From the IMG/VR virus record IMGVR_UViG_3300025678_000930: a stretch of 64,000 nt of DNA; one strand, written 5' to 3'. Position numbers and translations under genes: made by a program. The stretch's first letter is position 1, and every line of letters starts with the position of its first letter. This stretch comes from an uncultured virus (IMG/VR IMGVR_UViG_3300025678_000930). Its lineage: Duplodnaviria; Heunggongvirae; Uroviricota; Caudoviricetes. Of this stretch, positions 958 through 60,923 are shown one piece after another. The notes under the pieces are model-generated. The model did not search any database. It was not told the origin of the DNA and was given only the letters and a program-made list of their open reading frames with translations.

Positions 958-1100
958 GAAACACAAGAATGCGTCACAACACAAGATTTTCCCTTATATT
1001 CAAAATGCTTTTTTATAAAGAGAGAAATAAAATCCTGTGAGCACACACGCGCGTAAGTAAATATAGGGAAAAGTTGTGCTACCTTGTGTACTTGTGTCAG
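958..1100. repeat. Short ACACAA(G)/(C)TTGTG repeats around an AT-rich core; candidate replication origin
   Basis: acacaag twice at about 961-985, inverted ttgtg copies at about 1074-1097; located right after the primase-helicase gene. Confidence 0.4.
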
Positions 1101-1113
1101 ATGGGAGGTAAAG

Positions 1114-1401
1114 ATGATTGAGAAATATATAGAGAAAAAACTGGTAGCCGCAGTTAAGAAAATGGGAGGAATTGCACCGAAGTTTGTAAGTCCTGGATTA
1201 AATGGTGTGCCAGACAGAATTGTGCTACTTCCTATGGGAAGAATCGCATTTGTTGAATTAAAAGCACCAGGCAAAATGATGCGTGCTCTGCAAGTAAGAC
1301 GAAAAAGGCAACTAGAGGAGTTAGGGTTTTTAGTTTACTGCATTGATAGTGTAGAGCAGATAGATGAAGTGTTAAAAGAGATGGGAGGTGATGCCAAATG
1401 A
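1114..1401 (+). CDS. VRR-NUC domain nuclease
   Basis: GVPDRIVL...FVELKAPG motif; SD ggaggt before ATG 1114. Confidence 0.85.
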   Translation: MIEKYIEKKLVAAVKKMGGIAPKFVSPGLNGVPDRIVLLPMGRIAFVELKAPGKMMRALQVRRKRQLEELGFLVYCIDSVEQIDEVLKEMGGDAK

Positions 1402-2767
1402 AGTTCATACCCCATGATTACCAGCTATATGCAAGTGCATATATAGAAAAGCACACAATATCAGCAATATTCTTGGATATGGGCTTAGGTTAGGAAAAAC
1501 AGTCCTGACCTTAACAGCCTTAAACAATCTCTTGTTTGATAGTTTTGAAATACACAAAATCCTAATAATTGCACCATTAAGAGTTGCCAGAGACACATGG
1601 CCTACTGAAATTGAAAAATGGGATCACCTAAAAGATTTAACATATTCGGTTGTCCTTGGAAGTGAAAAAGAAAGGAATGCAGCCTTAATGAAAAAAGCTG
1701 ATATCTATATTATAAATCGTGAAAATTTAAAATGGCTTGTGGAAGACAGCTCTTTCCCCTTTGATTTTGACACAATTGTTGTTGACGAGCTTTCATCTTT
1801 CAAGAATTATAAGTCTAAACGTTTCCGTTCTTTAATGAAAGTAAGACCAAAGATTAAAAGAATAGTTGGCTTAACAGGAACTCCTGCGAGTAACGGTTTA
1901 ATGGATTTATGGGCTGAATTTAGACTTTTGGACTTAGGAGAAAGGCTTGGAAGATTTATAGGAAAGTACAGAGAAGACTACTTTATACCGGATAAAAGAA
2001 ACCAGCAGATCATATTTTCATACAAGCCTAAGCCAGGAGCTGAAGATGCAATCTATAAAAAGATTTCAGATATAACAATTAGCATGAAAGGTTCTGATTA
2101 TCTCAAACTTCCTGAACTTGTTATTAATGAAGTAGAGGTTAATCTTTCTGAAAAGGAAATGAAAATTCTTGATGATATGAAAAAGGAATTAGTAACTATG
2201 GTAAAAGATGATGAAATCAGTGCAGCCAATGCTGCTGCCTTGTCAAATAAGCTTTTACAGATGGCAAATGGTGCAGTCTACGATGAGCTTGGTGAAGTAG
2301 TTAATATTCACCACCGTAAGCTTGATGCTTTAGAAGATTTAATCGAAGCTGCAAACGGCAAACCTGTTTTAATAGCTTACTGGTTTAAACATGATATGAA
2401 ACGAATCTCTGAAAGGTTTTCAGTTGAAACCTTGGACACCACTGACTCAATAAGAAGATGGAATAAGGGTGAAATTCCTGTAGCAATAATCCATCCCGCC
2501 TCTGCAGGTCATGGACTTAATCTACAAACCGGTGGCTCTACCCTTATATGGTTTGGTCTCACTTGGAGCCTTGAACTCTACCAACAAACTAATGCAAGAC
2601 TCTGGAGACAAGGTCAACAAAATTCAGTTGTTATTTACCACATAATTTCTAAAGACACAATTGACGAACGGGTAATGAAGGCGCTTAAAAATAAGGACAG
2701 TACACAAGCTGCCTTAATAGATGGAGTTAAAGCAAACCTAAAAACAGGAGGTAAAATTGATGAATGA
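1398..2767 (+). CDS. SNF2-family helicase interrupted by a 5-bp TTAGG duplication in Walker A (31-aa ORF 1398-1493, remainder in another frame)
   Basis: MKFIPHDYQ...FLDMGLG* then GKTV in the frame of 1532-2767; DELSS, GLTGTP, GHGLNLQ and QTNARLWRQGQ motifs intact. Confidence 0.85.
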
Positions 2768-2978: not shown

Positions 2979-3415
2979 TGACAGCAAAAGAATATTTAAG
3001 CAAAGCCTATCGCCTTGATCAAAGAATAAATAGCAAATTGGAACAAGTAGCATCCCTAGAAAACATGGCTGTAAACTGTACTCATGCCATAACTGGGATG
3101 CCCCGTAACCCCAACCCTTCTGTATCTCAGATGGAAGATGCTGTCTGTAAGATTATTGATATAAAAAACAATTTGAAAGATGATCTTGCAAAACTTCTGA
3201 ATTACAAGGTAAGTATTCTTGAGATAATCCAGAGTGTGAATAATCTTGAATACAGATTAATTCTTGAAAAGCGCTACCTCTGTTATCAACCTTGGGAGGA
3301 TATCGCCTACGACTTAAATTATTCTGTAAGCTGGGTGCTTAAGCTTCACCGTAAAGCTCTCAGAGCTGTAGATTCTATTATGGCTGGAAAGGAGAATAAA
3401 AATGGGATGGTATGA
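2975..3415 (+). CDS. DUF1492/RinA-ArpU-like transcriptional activator
   Basis: AKEYLSKAYRLDQRI N-terminus, C-terminal HTH (RYL..WEDIA.DLNYS); upstream of packaging genes. Confidence 0.7.
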   Translation: MMTAKEYLSKAYRLDQRINSKLEQVASLENMAVNCTHAITGMPRNPNPSVSQMEDAVCKIIDIKNNLKDDLAKLLNYKVSILEIIQSVNNLEYRLILEKRYLCYQPWEDIAYDLNYSVSWVLKLHRKALRAVDSIMAGKENKNGMV

Positions 3416-4034
3416 AGCTTTAGAAGATGGAATAACCATCGGTAAGGATAAAAATAATACAAATTGTTATTATCCACCCTGCCACATATGCGGCACAGCA
3501 GTTTATAGCTGGTCCTACACTCGTGGTACTCAGTACATCTGCAAAGACTGTAGGGCTGAGCTTGTAAGGCAGACACGGGAAGAAGGAAATTTAATCAGCA
3601 CTGATAAGAAGAAAAAGAAGCTTGAAAATGCTATAAAGCGAATCTCTAAGGTCACAAACATTTCAGCCTATGAGAATGCAATAAGACTTGTAAAGAAGAA
3701 CCTGAATAAGCCAGGATGGTATCAGAGTACAGAAGAAATTATGGTTGCCCTTGAACTAGTCCGTCGTGGAGTAAAGGCACATCATCAGGTTAAAATCTTT
3801 GATTACAGTGTTGACTTCATTCTCCCTGACATGAAGGTTGCTCTTGAGATTGACGGCAAGATCTTCCATGGCAAAGACAGACTAGAGTATCAAACCAATA
3901 GAGATGAGGCCATTGCTAATAAACTTGGAGATGGCTGGGAGATAATTAGAATCACTACTGACAATATTAATATGAATGTCACCAAATTGATTACAGGAAT
4001 CAATGCCGTTCTTAAAAGAAGAAAACCTTCATAG
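3402..4034 (+). CDS. Zn-finger plus DUF559/Vsr-like PD-(D/E)XK endonuclease
   Basis: CHIC...CKDC; YSVDFILPDMKVALEIDGKIFH...RD. Confidence 0.65.
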   Translation: MGWYEALEDGITIGKDKNNTNCYYPPCHICGTAVYSWSYTRGTQYICKDCRAELVRQTREEGNLISTDKKKKKLENAIKRISKVTNISAYENAIRLVKKNLNKPGWYQSTEEIMVALELVRRGVKAHHQVKIFDYSVDFILPDMKVALEIDGKIFHGKDRLEYQTNRDEAIANKLGDGWEIIRITTDNINMNVTKLITGINAVLKRRKPS

Positions 4035-39001: not shown

Positions 39002-40570
39002 ATGATGAAAAAGATAACAAAAATAAATGAATTGGAGAGACCGCTATTATCTAAAACGAAGCTTCGAGTTGCAGCCTATGCTAGAGTTTCAACAGATAGT
39101 GATGAACAGCTTGTAAGCCTTAAAGCACAGCGAGAGCACTATGAAACTTATATTAAATCCAACTCAGAATGGGAGTTTGCAGGTCTCTATTATGACGAAG
39201 GTATATCAGGAACCAAAAAGGAAAAACGACCAGAACTTCTTCGCATGATACGTGATTGTGAGAATGGGAAGATAGATTTTATTGTTACTAAATCAATTAG
39301 TCGGTTTGCCCGTAACACAATGGACTGTCTAGAATTGGTAAGAAGTTTGATGGATATCGGTGTCTATATTTATTTTGAGAAAGAAAATTTAAATACAGGT
39401 GACATGGAGAGCGAACTTATGCTTTCTATCCTCTCGGGTTTTGCAGAAGAAGAGTCTGCGTCAATATCACAAAATACCTCATGGTCAATCAATAAGAAAT
39501 TTAAAAATGGTAGTTACATTATTGGCAGCCCTCCTTATGGTTATGCCAATGTAAATGGTGAGATGGTTATTGTTCCAGAGGAAGCTGAAATAATAAAACG
39601 CATTTTTGCAGAATGCCTTTCAGGTAAAGGTGGAAGTATCATAGCAAAAGGCCTGAACAGGGATAAGATTCCTGCAAGAAGAGGCAACCATTGGAGTTCA
39701 GGTACGATAATTGAAATGCTCCGGAACGAAAAATACAAAGGTGATGTCCTTTTCCAGAAGACATATACGGACAGCAACTTCAACCGTCATATTAACAATG
39801 GCGAGAAGGATCAGTTTTACTGTAAGAATCACCACGAACCTATTATCAGCAGAGAAGTATTCTCTAAGGCTCAAAAGCTGATAGCAGAAAGAGCAAAGAA
39901 TCGTAATAAATCCATTGCTAAGAATACTTATCAAAACAGATATGTATTGAGTGGAAGAATAATCTGTGGAGAGTGTGGTTCCAAGTTTAGAAGAAAAACA
40001 AACTATTCTGTTGGCAGAAGTTATATAGCCTGGAGTTGCATAGGTCACATTGAAGACAAGAACAGTTGCTCCATGTTATTTTTGCGTGATGGAGAGATAA
40101 AAGCAACATTCGCAACGATGATGAATAAGCTAGCATTCAGCAGAAAGATAATACTGGAGCCACTTTACGATTCAATAAACAAAATTGACGAAGAATGCGA
40201 CCTTGAAAGAATTGATGCCATAGATAAGCGCATGGAACAATTAACCGAAGAACGCAATACTCTTATTGGTCTTATGACAAAAGGGTTTCTCGAACCAGCA
40301 CTTTTTAACAAGGAACGAAATGTCCTAGATATAGAGATAAAAAATCTTACTGCTGAGAAGACAAACTTAGTAATGTCATTTACCAATGGCACTTCACAGG
40401 CGGACGAGGTAAAGGCACTTCTTGATTATGTGTCGAAAGAAAAGTTTGATGGTAATTATACAGATGAGGCATTTGAAAAGTTTGTTGAAAACATAACTGT
40501 AGATTCAAGGGATGAACTAATATTTAAAATGAAGTGTGGTCTTTCCCTTAAAGAAAAGGTGGTGAGATAA
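39002..40570 (+). CDS. Large serine recombinase 1
   Basis: AYARVST catalytic Ser, KSISRFARN, Zn-ribbon CGECG. Confidence 0.92.
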   Translation: MMKKITKINELERPLLSKTKLRVAAYARVSTDSDEQLVSLKAQREHYETYIKSNSEWEFAGLYYDEGISGTKKEKRPELLRMIRDCENGKIDFIVTKSISRFARNTMDCLELVRSLMDIGVYIYFEKENLNTGDMESELMLSILSGFAEEESASISQNTSWSINKKFKNGSYIIGSPPYGYANVNGEMVIVPEEAEIIKRIFAECLSGKGGSIIAKGLNRDKIPARRGNHWSSGTIIEMLRNEKYKGDVLFQKTYTDSNFNRHINNGEKDQFYCKNHHEPIISREVFSKAQKLIAERAKNRNKSIAKNTYQNRYVLSGRIICGECGSKFRRKTNYSVGRSYIAWSCIGHIEDKNSCSMLFLRDGEIKATFATMMNKLAFSRKIILEPLYDSINKIDEECDLERIDAIDKRMEQLTEERNTLIGLMTKGFLEPALFNKERNVLDIEIKNLTAEKTNLVMSFTNGTSQADEVKALLDYVSKEKFDGNYTDEAFEKFVENITVDSRDELIFKMKCGLSLKEKVVR

Positions 40571-40988: not shown

Positions 40989-42551
40989 GTGACTGAAAAA
41001 AGTATAACTGTAATTCCAGCACGAAAAAGATTTGGAAACACAGTTGCAAAAGAAAAAATAAAGAAACTGCGTGTCGCTGCCTATTGCCGTGTTTCTACAG
41101 AAACAGAAGAGCAGAATTCAAGCTATGAAGTGCAAGTAGATCATTACACGGAGTTTATAAAGAAAAATACTGAATGGGAGTTTGCAGGCATATTTGCAGA
41201 TGACGGCATATCTGGCACTAATACCAAAAAACGTGAAGAGTTCAACCGTATGATAGACGAGTGCATGGAGGGTAAAATAGATTTAGTTATTACCAAGTCC
41301 ATTAGTCGATTTGCCCGTAATACTCTGGATTGCCTAAAGTACATTAGACAACTTAAGGAGAAGAACATATCGGTATTTTTCGAGAAGGAAAACATCAATA
41401 CAATGGATGCCAAGGGTGAAGTACTGCTCACTATTATGGCATCTCTAGCACAGCAAGAAAGTCAGAGCCTTTCGCAGAACGTTAAACTGGGACTTCAATA
41501 CCGATATCAACAAGGAAAGGTACAGGTCAACCACAAGCGTTTCATGGGGTACACAAAAGACGAAGACGGCAACTTAATAATAGTTCCTGGAGAGGCAAAA
41601 ATCATTAAACGAATTTATAGAGAATACCTTGAGGGCAAAAGCCTGGCGGGTATTGGTAGGGATCTTGAAAAGGATGGTATTTTAACAGCCGCCGGAAAAC
41701 CAAAGTGGAGACCAGAAACCTTAAAGAAAATTCTTTCGAATGAGAAATACATCGGTGATGCACTTTTGCAAAAGACCACTACAGTTGATTTTCTTACAAA
41801 GAAGAGAGTCAAGAATGAAGGTCATCTCCCACAGTATTATGTTGAAAATAGCCATGAGGCTATCATTCCGAAAGAACTCTTTTTACAAGCACAGGAAGAA
41901 CTTCATCGCCGGAATAACATTTACACAGGCACAGACAAGAATAAAAGAATTTACAGCAGTAAATACGCTCTGAGTACCATAACCTTCTGTGGTGATTGCG
42001 GTGATATTTATAGACGAACATATTGGAATGTTCACGGTAGAAAAGAAATTGTTTGGCGATGTGTAACAAGAATCGAGCAAGGCCCCGAAATATGCAAGAG
42101 CCGAACAGTAAAGGAAGGCGATTTATATGATGCTGTTATGACTGCCATTAATAGATTACTTGCTGGCGGTGATAACATGATAAAAACACTGGAAGAAAAC
42201 ATCCATGCGGTAATTGGTGACACCACAGAGTATCAAATTTCAGAGATTAACACCTTGCTTGAAGAAAAGCAGAAGGAACTAATCAGCCTTGCTAATAAAG
42301 GAAAAGACTATGAACACTTGGCAGATGAGATTGATAACCTGCGTGAAAAACGTCAGACCCTTCTTGTGGAAGATGCATCATTAAGTGGTGAGAATGAGAG
42401 GATTAACGAGCTGATTGAATTTATCCGCAACAATAAATACCGAACCCAAAGATATGATGATGTACTTGTAAGAAAGTTAATACAGAATGTTACTGTTTAC
42501 GATGACCATTTTGTAGTATGCTTTAAATCTGGCATTGAAGTTGAAGTATGA
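40989..42551 (+). CDS. Large serine recombinase 2
   Basis: [21 protein letters not shown]. Confidence 0.92.
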
Positions 42552-59067: not shown

Positions 59068-59281
59068 AGGTAGTTCCTTGTTCTTTGGTTGTTTCCTATA
59101 GTTGTTTTCTTAAAACCGTAGCAAATACCGATACTTCGGCTTAACGGGAATAACAGGAACAAGACTTTTACTACTTAGTAATAAATAAAAAAGTAATAGT
59201 AGAAATGTCGTGTGTGCGCGCATATAGGAAAAATCGTTCAAAGTTGTGCCTGTTGTTCCCCAATAAGAAATGGAGGACATT

Positions 59282-59569
59282 ATGCAAGAAAAATATATAG
59301 AGCAAAAATTGATAGCAGCAGTTAAAAACATGGGAGGCATTGCCCCGAAGTTTGTAAGTCCTGGATTTAATGGTATGCCAGACCGCCTTGTGCTGCTTCC
59401 TATGGGCAGAATCGCATTTATTGAATTAAAAGCACCGGGTAAAATGATGCGTCCCCTGCAAGTAAGGCGAAAAAGACAACTGGAAGCGTTAGGTTTTTTA
59501 GTTTACTGCATTGATAGTGTAGAGCAGATTGATGAAGTGTTACAAGAGATGGGAGGTGATGCCGAATGA
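59282..59569 (+). CDS. VRR-NUC domain nuclease
   Basis: Near-identical to 1114-1401. Confidence 0.85.
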   Translation: MQEKYIEQKLIAAVKNMGGIAPKFVSPGFNGMPDRLVLLPMGRIAFIELKAPGKMMRPLQVRRKRQLEALGFLVYCIDSVEQIDEVLQEMGGDAE

Positions 59570-60923
59570 AGTTCATACCACATGATTATCAGCAGTATGC
59601 AATTGATTTTATCGAGAGCAAGGCAATATCTGCAATATTCCTTGATATGGGCTTAGGTTAGGAAAAACTGCAATTACTCTCACTGCATTGTTTGACCTTT
59701 GTCTTGATAAATTTGAAATAAGAAAAGTCTTGATTATAGCCCCATTAAGAGTTGCATCTCAAACATGGCCTGCAGAAATAAAAAAGTGGGATCACCTCAA
59801 AGGCTTATCATACTCTGTGGCAGTAGGAACGGAAAAAGACAGAATCAATGCCCTTATGAAAAGAGCCACCATTTATATCATCAACCGTGAAAATGTAGAT
59901 TGGCTTGTAAACAAGAGCGGAATCCCCTTTGACTTCGATATGATTGTCATTGATGAGTTATCCTCTTTTAAGTCCTATGGTGCAAAGCGGTTTAAAAGCC
60001 TTCTGAAAGTAAGACCATCTGTAAGAAGGATTGTAGGTCTTACGGGAACACCTTCAAGTAACGGACTTATGGATTTATGGGCAGAGTTTCGTGTCCTTGA
60101 TTTAGGTCAGAGGCTTGGAAGGTACATAACCCACTACCGAAGTGCCTACTTTGTGCCGGATAAGCGTAATGCTGAAATTATCTTTTCATATAAGCCACTG
60201 CCGGGTGCTGAAGAAAGGATATACAGCCAAATCTCTGATATTACGATTTCCATGAAGTCTGCAGATTACCTCAAAATGCCTGAATGCGTCATAAATGAAG
60301 TGCCTGTGTATCTGAGTGAAAAGGAATGGATCATTTATTCTGATTTCCGAGATGAAATGGTTGCAAATTTAGGTGATGAGGAAATTGATGCAGTAAATGC
60401 GGCAGTTCTTTCTGGCAAACTCCTGCAGATGGCCAATGGTGCTGTTTATGATGATAAAAATAAAGCTCATCTTATTCATGATAGAAAACTTGATGCCTTG
60501 GAGGACTTGATTGAAGGTGCAAATGGGAAACCTGTGCTGGTTGCCTACTGGTATAAGCATGACCTGGAGCGTATCCAGAAGAGATTTTCTGCTAGGCAGA
60601 TAAAGACATCGAAAGATATTGAAGATTGGAATAACGGCAATATCCCAATAGCCGCTATTCATCCGGCAAGTGCAGGACACGGACTTAATCTTCAAAGTGG
60701 AGGTTCAACCCTTATATGGTTTGGACTTACCTGGTCTTTGGAGTTGTATCAGCAAACTAATGCCCGTCTTTATAGGCAAGGTCAAAATGAAACGGTTGTG
60801 ATACACCACATTATTGCTAAAGACACCATAGATGAAGATGTTATGACTGCACTTACAAGAAAAGAAAAAACACAAACCTCTTTAATTGATGCTGTAAAAG
60901 CAAAATTGGAGGTGGTGCGATGA
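59566..60923 (+). CDS. SNF2-family helicase interrupted by the same TTAGG duplication (31-aa ORF 59566-59661, remainder in another frame)
   Basis: FLDMGLG* then GKTA in the frame of 59688-60923; other helicase motifs intact. Confidence 0.85.

Follow-up and report, generated by a model that had tools for sequence, protein, structure and literature searches.

In a 64,000-nucleotide stretch of uncultured Caudoviricetes DNA (IMG/VR record IMGVR_UViG_3300025678_000930; the whole stretch is hereafter called the window), two genes for SNF2-type helicases, A (1398-2767) and B (59566-60923), are each interrupted by a five-nucleotide (nt) coding gap within the Walker A motif, between the last glycine and the lysine of the GLGKT P-loop. 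Gapped versions of the gene occur in many related phages with the rest of the gene intact, and so ribosomes most likely hop the gap. Comparison of these genes indicates that the junction is a real, widespread, and selected recoding site. Functional recoding of some form is highly probable here, and the favored reading, to which we assign a probability of roughly 60%, is a programmed, very short translational bypass, or “stop-hop,” of peptidyl-tRNA-Gly.

The split Walker A motif of helicases A and B

The Walker A codons of the two copies are the same (GGC TTA GGT TAG GAA AAA) and include TTAGGTTAGG (1485-1494 and 59653-59662), which has only these two matches in the window where 0.06 are expected; a count of two was reached in 1 of 100 shuffles of the window. 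In copy A, the frame that opens with ATG at 1398 runs through GGC, TTA (1485-1487), and GGT to a TAG stop, and AAA ACA begins another frame at 1496 that is open as far as the stop at 2767. Copy B is arranged in the same way, with ATG at 59566, the first Gly codon GGC at 59650-59652, and a frame open from AAA at 59664 to 60923 (Table 1). The first open reading frame (ORF) comprises 31 codons and ends DMGLG in both genes, with Lys-Thr lying five bases past it, and the downstream frame counted from the Lys codon has 423 codons in A and 419 in B. An earlier note on this DNA, which had described a TTAGG duplication that leaves a 31-residue ORF ahead of another of more than 400 residues, is correct in every particular, and its remark that the two helicases are diverged elsewhere with intact downstream ORFs also holds. 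The genes are colinear and ungapped with respect to each other, with 27-48 of 60 bases matching per interval, and their proteins are identical at 291 of 423 aligned positions (nonsynonymous divergence, dN, 0.27; synonymous divergence, dS, saturated). In the gene upstream of the helicase, 49-57 of 60 bases match per interval.

Both copies match PF00176 (SNF2-related; E = 6e-14 and 5e-10) and PF00271 (Helicase_C), as befits SNF2-type SF2 helicases, and the helicase matches PHROG 62, “DNA helicase” (E = 6e-160). In intact homologues, residues 3-8 mark the start of the DEAD/ResIII profile matches, and the domain profiles cross the junction; the 31-codon piece therefore belongs to the ATPase core. 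Reassignment of the stop codon was rejected as an explanation, because readthrough of TAG in A meets a TGA three codons on and the other genes of the window are open under translation table 11.

Distribution and diversity of gapped junctions

When the downstream piece of A served as the query of a protein search, 80 IMG/VR loci were recovered at 68-100% identity, and 79 of these include the junction. Fifteen of the 79 are broken at exactly the Walker A codon, by 4, 5, 6, or 7 extra bases, and 64 are intact. A search with a 16-base junction pattern found at least 105 viral and at least 120 genomic stretches, from which chance matches (six in viral contigs and most of the 120 genomic stretches) were dropped. 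Since such a search fixes the junction sequence itself, a third sample of 103 loci was chosen by a start-codon pattern ~90 nt upstream of the junction; here the first ORF is short, and the gene thus gapped, in 92 loci and intact in 11. Of 416 sequences, 313 were placed by a frame-aware classifier with four requirements: the first ORF had to be open and have a start codon, the gap had to measure 0-18 nt, Lys-Thr/Ser had to stand at the resume point, and the frame beyond it had to remain open. Among the matches listed, 237 are unique, 162 of them gapped and 75 intact. One classifier match (L218), a catalase-peroxidase gene, was dropped as a chance match.

Gaps of 5 nt are the most frequent in the 162 unique gapped loci (105), followed by those of 4 nt (25), 6 nt (20), 7 nt (8), 9 nt (2), 8 nt (1), and 10 nt (1), such that all three frame classes are present. 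The classified loci display 29 gap sequence forms, including the 4-nt forms TAGC (17 unique loci) and TGAC (5). The exact TTAGG duplication accounts for 5 of the 60 unique junctions tabulated. “The same TTAGG duplication” is therefore an apt description of A and B and not of the junction in general, where it is one form among 29 and most gaps are not repeats.

At least 34 gapped loci lie in Bacillota genomes (Clostridia, Negativicutes, Tissierellia, and Bacilli), several of them cultured isolates; carriers in culture include Geosporobacter ferrireducens IRF9, Mobilitalea sibirica DSM 26468, and Acidaminococcus fermentans. Four phages in GenBank also carry the gap, namely Erysipelothrix phage phi1605 (5 nt), Ruminococcus phage NatCom_38182 (9 nt), Christensenellales phage NatCom_6392 (5 nt), and “IMGVR 15682261” (5 nt), and the nearest virus record (G001) repeats copy A. 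The earlier note had allowed for a doubled TTAGG confined to one assembly; the gapped form is instead widespread across phages.

Codon constraints at the junction

In the start-codon sample, the last Gly codon of the first ORF, the proposed take-off codon, takes only two forms in the 88 gapped loci, GGT (83) and GGC (5), and is never GGA or GGG, whereas intact genes use all four Gly codons. Two codons upstream, Gly is encoded by GGC in all 88 gapped loci, and intact genes again mix all four codons. The intervening Leu codon is TTA (36), TTG (31), CTC (20), or CTG (1) but never CTT, the commonest Leu codon of intact genes (30 of 66). Codon entropy was computed for 60 unique gapped and 72 unique intact genes, a set that omits loci identical to the junction-pattern fetches and in which TTA and TAGGA are under-represented. 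At the two Gly codons, the third position has an entropy of 0.00 and 0.41 bits in gapped genes versus 1.77 and 1.73 bits in intact genes, and neighboring four-fold sites are nearly saturated in both groups (1.5-1.96 bits). Fisher tests of these codon constraints give p values from 2e-24 to 7e-8, uncorrected for phylogeny.

The codon that follows take-off is a stop in 54 of the 60 gapped junctions (TGA 31, TAG 22, TAA 1), which supplies the slow-to-decode A-site codon characteristic of bypassing. The remaining six have a sense codon at this position (CCA 3, TGG 2, AGG 1), as does an Acidaminococcus lineage (TCG); within the ORFs concerned, CCA, AGG, and TCG rank as minor codons (roughly 2-7 per 1000), and TGG is the only Trp codon. 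The triplet preceding the Lys codon is GGA, GGC, or GGT in 33 junctions, AGC or AGT in 24, and GAC in 3. The resume codons specify Lys in 60 and Thr in 59 of the 60 gapped genes.

A proposed hop of peptidyl-tRNA-Gly

These features suggest a pathway in which the ribosome would translate the 31-codon first piece and arrive with the Gly codon GGU in the P site. The A site would then be occupied by a stop, which is replaced in a few lineages by a minor sense codon. During the slow reading of this codon, peptidyl-tRNA-Gly would release GGU, the mRNA would slip forward by 4-10 nt, and the tRNA would re-pair with GGN or, failing that, with AGY or GAC. Decoding would then resume at the Lys codon to yield one polypeptide with an uninterrupted GLGKT P-loop. 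Terminating ribosomes would release the 31-residue peptide, and the site may for this reason also cap helicase output. GGY codons are read by tRNA-Gly(GCC), and the restriction of take-off to GGY points to one tRNA, with wobble-paired GGU apparently preferred for leaving.

Judged from the gap sequences, skipping the gap is the only reading that yields GLGKT in every form. The two pieces are colinear with intact homologues and no residue is gained or lost, as expected of two ORFs that specify one protein, and even between close relatives the gap lengths can belong to different frame classes (5 versus 6, 5 versus 9, and 6 versus 7 nt). Where Leu is encoded by TTA, a TAG stands in the +1 frame directly before the take-off codon, and so in the 4- and 7-nt forms any frame change must occur at that one codon. 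Of the three mechanisms put forward in the earlier note, a hop from GGU over UAG to GGA fits these comparative data, and the other two, a -1 shift and repeat contraction, do not. We infer the hop, together with any efficiency or purpose it may have, from junction anatomy, codon constraints, and gap-length variety that are themselves directly observed, as is the selection described below.

Several points weigh against a hop. Its support is wholly comparative, and synthetic stop-hops are inefficient. In the few lineages whose A-site codon is a sense codon, a hop has to compete with ordinary decoding. The landing triplet is not a Gly codon in 27 of the 60 junctions; AGC, AGT, and GAC match Gly at two of three positions, and these imperfect triplets arise because the landing site overlaps the stop codon in the shortest gaps (T-AG-C, T-GA-C). 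The hop model accounts neither for the invariant upstream GGC nor for the lack of CTT at the Leu codon. The 60 gapped genes share no consensus RNA structure (alignment fold, -0.1 kcal/mol), and no other stimulator was found at the junction. In addition, 11 of the 15 gapped records examined are integrated proviruses, and terminal repeats were seen in none of them.

Copy A does have a predicted stem-loop in which 1487-1495 pairs with 1503-1511, with a predicted minimum free energy of -20.9 kcal/mol for a 70-nt stretch (z = -3.3), and copy B has no equivalent stem (z = -0.8). Both had been noticed at the outset, when the stem was likened to that of T4 gene 60. As a mechanism the likeness does not carry over, the element being present in A only and not conserved among the 60 gapped genes; median folding z is -0.03 in gapped and 0.18 in intact genes. 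The stem-loop is specific to the lineage of A and probably not part of the mechanism. Two further candidates were set aside: a 3-bp helix that the alignment fold suggests between the take-off codon and the invariant GGC is of negligible stability (0 to -0.2 kcal/mol), and joint re-pairing of the Leu and Gly tRNAs on the duplicated TTAGG is at odds with the finding that the Leu codon and the gap sequence are unlinked.

Possible frameshifting, readthrough, or separate polypeptides

The site could instead be recoded in lineage-specific ways, by -1 shifting at 5- and 8-nt gaps, +1 shifting at 4-, 7-, and 10-nt gaps, and readthrough at 6- and 9-nt gaps, the helicase then gaining one to three residues within or ahead of the P-loop. 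Such products would in part resemble a functional motif, in that a -1 shift on the form found in the window would give DMGLGLGKT, readthrough of the 6-nt forms would give G-X-G-K-T, and a +1 shift on most 7-nt forms would give G-E-G-K-T, each with a GxGKT ending. A-site stops, moreover, stimulate +1 shifting, as in prfB. Programmed frameshifting, however, entails a fixed change of frame, whereas the gap lengths here fall in all three frame classes and these classes switch between close relatives, which would need repeated changes of mechanism. Neither junction in the window has a slippery heptamer of the X XXY YYZ type or a CUU-U type site, and re-pairing of tRNA-Gly on GUU after a +1 shift would match one base only. 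Frameshifting or readthrough would also put variable residues into the P-loop. A +1 shift adds Ser, Asp, or Gly before Lys, the 4-nt TAGC and TGAC forms placing Ser or Asp between Gly and Lys, and a -1 shift adds LG, LS, FG, SS, or LR in the 5-nt forms and turns TGAGC/TGAGT forms into L-S-K-T, destroying the G-K-T core. Readthrough could serve the 6- and 9-nt forms only, and the -1 shift cannot serve those of 4, 6, 7, 9, or 10 nt. Such a mixture of mechanisms appears unlikely.

It is quite improbable that the gap separates two polypeptides, a 31-residue peptide and an internally started helicase, with or without their non-covalent reassembly. The gaps are indeed purine-rich and Shine-Dalgarno-like (TAGGA, TGAGG, TAAGG), and GenBank annotators have called two coding sequences (CDSs), but no suitably spaced ATG, GTG, or TTG follows the gap. 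The first such codon in A is TTG at 1532, 12 codons past Lys-Thr, and a start there would leave the conserved Lys-Thr codons untranslated, yet these are invariant. We also know of no P-loop that reassembles after being cut between Gly and Lys.

Selection on the gapped genes

The ratio dN/dS was computed for 1500 random pairs drawn from 122 full-length unique gapped genes, using those pairs with 0.1 < dS < 2.5. Its median is 0.18 for the downstream piece (212 pairs) and 0.21 for the upstream 30 codons (178 pairs), values which indicate that both flanks of the gap are under purifying selection. The earlier note had argued that the lesion is not random decay and had considered that a downstream ratio near 1 would speak otherwise. 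Its argument is borne out by ratios of ~0.2 on both sides, with dS saturated, and by the Lys-Thr retained at the resume point.

Decay of a dispensable helicase into a pseudogene, with the lesion spread by recombination or hitch-hiking, is accordingly a very improbable account. In its favor, most gapped records are proviruses and the junction does travel by recombination (see below). Because the classifier demands an open downstream frame, the four unclassified loci of the start-codon sample were examined for decay; one is truncated, and the other three are damaged elsewhere as well, by a nonsense codon in one case, an insertion or rearrangement in another, and a second frameshift in the last, such that ~3 of 92 gapped genes look decayed. 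Against this stand the 50 full-length gapped genes of the 60-gene set, which form 31 clusters at 80% amino-acid identity and in which every frame is open, the synonymous-site constraints specific to gapped genes, and the finding that 4 of 5 CheckV-complete gapped records contain no second SNF2 gene. In L356, a gapped IMG/VR locus with a 9-nt form, unrelated sequence interrupts the helicase ~45 residues in, a short way downstream of the junction, through an insertion or rearrangement.

A possible switch at the DNA level

An equally improbable alternative is that slipped-strand mispairing or recombination shortens and lengthens the TTAGG duplication, keeping the helicase off in the prophage and on in a subpopulation. 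The gap in the window is an exact tandem duplication, as this would require, but few of the other junctions are; most gaps are non-repeat (TGAGC, TAGC, TGAAAAGGC, and others), and no series of one, two, and three copies was seen among the junctions, two copies being the maximum and that in one form. Since most of the 29 forms are not repeats, reversible repeat contraction, as the earlier note had it, cannot account for the junctions in general. Nor are those intact alleles that share the N-terminal module simple contractions of gapped ones, because their Gly codons differ. The contigs of three independent DNA sequencing runs, from three studies, contain no indel and no single-copy allele, and one contig bridges the junction with zero gaps. 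Contigs cannot display minority alleles, however, and for this reason the absence of indels is weaker evidence than the variety of non-repeat gaps. No RNA data set was listed as carrying the stretch, and one possible RNA run yielded a single contig, located away from the junction.

Many metagenome contigs from three studies end or branch at ~1379-1382, 1411, and 1432, with a depth peak at 1387-1427, and the helicase start region (~1380-1432) is common to several co-occurring phage variants.

Movement of the junction among helicase genes

Gapped and intact genes are interleaved in a FastTree phylogeny built from 83 gapped and 65 intact downstream pieces (148 in all, junction-pattern fetches included). 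Twenty state changes are needed, at least 13 of which are forced by well-supported branches, and nearly all gapped genes share one N-terminus type, MKF-PH. Sister pairs show how this can come about. The gapped L039 and L152 differ from the intact L016 in a patch of ~400 nt (~-150 to +250 relative to the junction) that is 50-76% identical, within a block of ~4.2 kb that is 92-100% identical per 50-nt interval. As read from these sequences, the patch is a local gene conversion with a donor outside the sample, and such swaps explain the interleaved tree despite the single MKF-PH type. In other sister pairs, similarity breaks at the junction itself.

The same junction, with a 4-nt gap, is found in a very distant SNF2 helicase with the N-terminus MNLYPHQVKAL... 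(IMG/VR loci L132, L140, and L172). In comparison with members of the main family, 19-20 of the 20 nt before the gap are identical for three of the four members compared (17 for L212), and 7 of the next 10 nt after the gap are shared (5 for L212), ~30 nt being shared in all. Either the bare signal was transferred or the two junctions converged. Because only junction bases are shared with this distant helicase, the signal looks compact and portable.

No flanking gene family specific to gapped loci was found within ~1.4 kb on each side of 12 gapped and 62 intact loci, and an adjacent homing endonuclease was rejected on this ground; the Vsr-like gene downstream of A (see below) has no counterpart near B. 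Whole genomes of a gapped and an intact phage share only ~4.2 kb at high identity, so that extra genes cannot be attributed to the gap state.

Conceivably, the junction is a self-contained recoding cassette of ~25-30 nt that is spread by local gene conversion and, as an insert in the best-conserved DNA of the gene, would confer immunity to a sequence-specific nuclease targeting Walker A, with the hop paying the cost of the insert. The interleaved tree, the ~400-nt patch swap, and the sharing of nothing but the junction by a distant helicase all fit this proposal, which would make the junction a miniature, endonuclease-free counterpart of the T4 gene 60 cassette. The nuclease might hypothetically be a homing endonuclease or belong to the defense of the host or of a rival phage. 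As no flanking gene is specific to gapped loci, a role in drive or immunity is only a hypothesis, and the cassette proposal as a whole is more doubtful than not by a wide measure.

Annotation of the helicase

Gapped helicases are mis-annotated in public records. Among four GenBank entries, PV036457 (L310), MF172979 (L307), PV036450 (L309), and PV036419 (L311), one has a single CDS with the first ~30 residues in the wrong frame, one has a CDS truncated at an internal start, and two have a 31-residue “hypothetical protein” followed by a second CDS. The helicase is a marker gene of Heliusvirales, a widespread order of gut phages (PMC11283538), and gapped copies of it in public records are called truncated, split in two, or given a wrong-frame N-terminus. 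The words frameshift, recoding, and stop codon do not occur in the main text of the paper that defines the order (PMC11283538), and no report of the junction site was found in full-text searches of the literature outside subscription journals.

Gene context in the window

In both copies the helicase is preceded by a VapE-type primase gene and a small nuclease gene and followed by genes for a sigma-like regulator, an HNH endonuclease, the small terminase subunit, and S-adenosylmethionine synthetase. The small nuclease upstream of A has a weak VRR-NUC match (E = 0.019, under the Pfam cut-off), and homologues occupy the upstream position in all of 12 gapped loci and in 57 of 62 intact ones. A long Shine-Dalgarno-like element, GGAGGTGAT, precedes the helicase start (1375-1400 and 59543-59568) inside the end of the nuclease gene, the stop of which overlaps the helicase ATG, and is conserved across gapped loci. 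Downstream of A, at 3402-4034, is a gene of Vsr-like endonuclease fold (DUF559 / REase_MTES_1575, PHROG 9529), which may be a free-standing mobile nuclease.

Full-length S-adenosylmethionine synthetase genes occur in both phage segments (5204-6382 and 62742-63920), directly after the small terminase gene, and the one on the A side adjoins genes for N6/N4 and C5 DNA methylases. The segment 34948-46859, which separates the lysin of phage A from the replication genes that lead to B, encodes a DUF2800 nuclease, an Enc34-type single-stranded DNA-binding protein, a family A DNA polymerase, tandem large serine recombinases (39002-40570 and 40989-42551), a PDDEXK_4 nuclease, and, on the opposite strand, HSP20. 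Overall, the window has the look of either a tandem pair of related prophages or a chimeric assembly.

Table 1. Features of the two helicase junctions in the window
Feature	Coordinates	Strand	Remarks
Small nuclease gene, upstream of A	1084..1401	+	PHROG 93 “endonuclease,” E = 2e-29; stop overlaps helicase start
Helicase A piece 1, 31 codons	1398..1490	+	DMGLG, first half of Walker A
First Gly codon GGC of A	1482..1484	+	Invariant among gapped genes
Proposed take-off codon GGT (Gly) of A	1488..1490	+	
5-nt coding gap TAGGA of A	1491..1495	+	Stop TAG 1491-1493 overlaps proposed landing GGA 1493-1495
Helicase A piece 2, AAA ACA (Lys-Thr) onward, 423 codons	1496..2767	+	SNF2-rel_dom, Helicase_C, and DEAD Pfam matches
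Candidate stem-loop around gap, copy A only	1487..1511	+	Predicted fold
Small nuclease gene, upstream of B	59270..59569	+	PHROG 93, E = 2.3e-29; ~90% DNA identity to A-side copy
Helicase B piece 1, 31 codons	59566..59658	+	Ends DMGLG; proposed take-off GGT 59656-59658
5-nt coding gap TAGGA of B	59659..59663	+	Stop TAG 59659-59661; proposed landing GGA 59661-59663
Helicase B piece 2, AAA ACT onward, 419 codons	59664..60923	+	

Comparison with known recoding systems

To our knowledge, bypassing known from the bench is essentially that of T4 gene 60, although supporting data exist for yeast mitochondria and for the terminase of one Streptomyces phage. A related use of an A-site stop is the +1 frameshift of prfB (release factor 2), in which the stop drives the P-site tRNA forward and output depends on termination efficiency. 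There the tRNA moves a single base, to a codon that overlaps the first, and a Shine-Dalgarno sequence at close spacing is required, whereas the proposed helicase shift is of 4-10 nt and no such element is evident.

The closest layout is that of synthetic stop-hops in E. coli (Weiss, Dunn, Atkins, and Gesteland, 1987), in which matching codons stand on either side of a stop and nine bases specify one residue; the peptidyl-tRNA re-pairs a few bases downstream, in a manner that depends on a slow A-site codon (PMC5009743). The 6-nt helicase forms GGT TGA GGT and GGT TAA GGC have this same layout. As summarized in that 2016 recoding review, short stop-hops occur only in synthetic constructs, with no natural in-frame stop hopping known (PMC5009743). 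Those sites are engineered, whereas the helicase site is natural and conserved, lies in an essential motif, and tolerates gaps of 4-10 nt.

In T4 gene 60, as proposed for the helicase, a Gly take-off codon is followed by a stop and landing is on a Gly codon, as the landing triplet is in 33 of the 60 helicase junctions; one enzyme of phage replication is made from two ORFs, and a horizontally mobile element is inserted in a highly conserved coding stretch. The T4 insert is described as traveling with a homing endonuclease, in the MobA cassette, and as protecting the phage from it (10.1101/2022.08.31.505936). There, 50 nt (20 nt in one clade) of a topoisomerase gene are bypassed with the aid of a take-off stem-loop and a nascent-peptide signal (PMC5009743; 10.1101/2022.08.31.505936), whereas the gap of the SNF2 gene is 4-10 nt and has neither a conserved structure nor a gapped-specific endonuclease gene within 1.4 kb.

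The large terminase gene of Streptomyces phage phiHau3 has coding gaps of 10 and 7 nt after UUA, and its junction peptide is reported from mass spectrometry in E. coli (PMC10732093). It too has short gaps in a phage enzyme gene that start with a slow codon, and a frameshift would likewise add residues at a conserved junction. In that account, three genes among 100 analyzed are concerned, a rare sense codon linked to the development of the host acts as the trigger, and the stimulators proposed are stem-loops together with an internal Shine-Dalgarno sequence (PMC10732093). The classification made here, by comparison, comprises 162 unique gapped loci, with a stop codon as the usual trigger and Bacillota as the hosts. 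From sequence comparison, the helicase gap is best regarded as a new natural variant of translational bypassing, a process in which short hops are almost unknown among natural genes. If this is true, these phages hold natural, abundant, and evolutionarily replicated minimal hop sites, in 29 forms with gaps of 4-10 nt, three stops, and several landing codons, which would amount to a ready-made mutational scan of the rules for take-off and landing.

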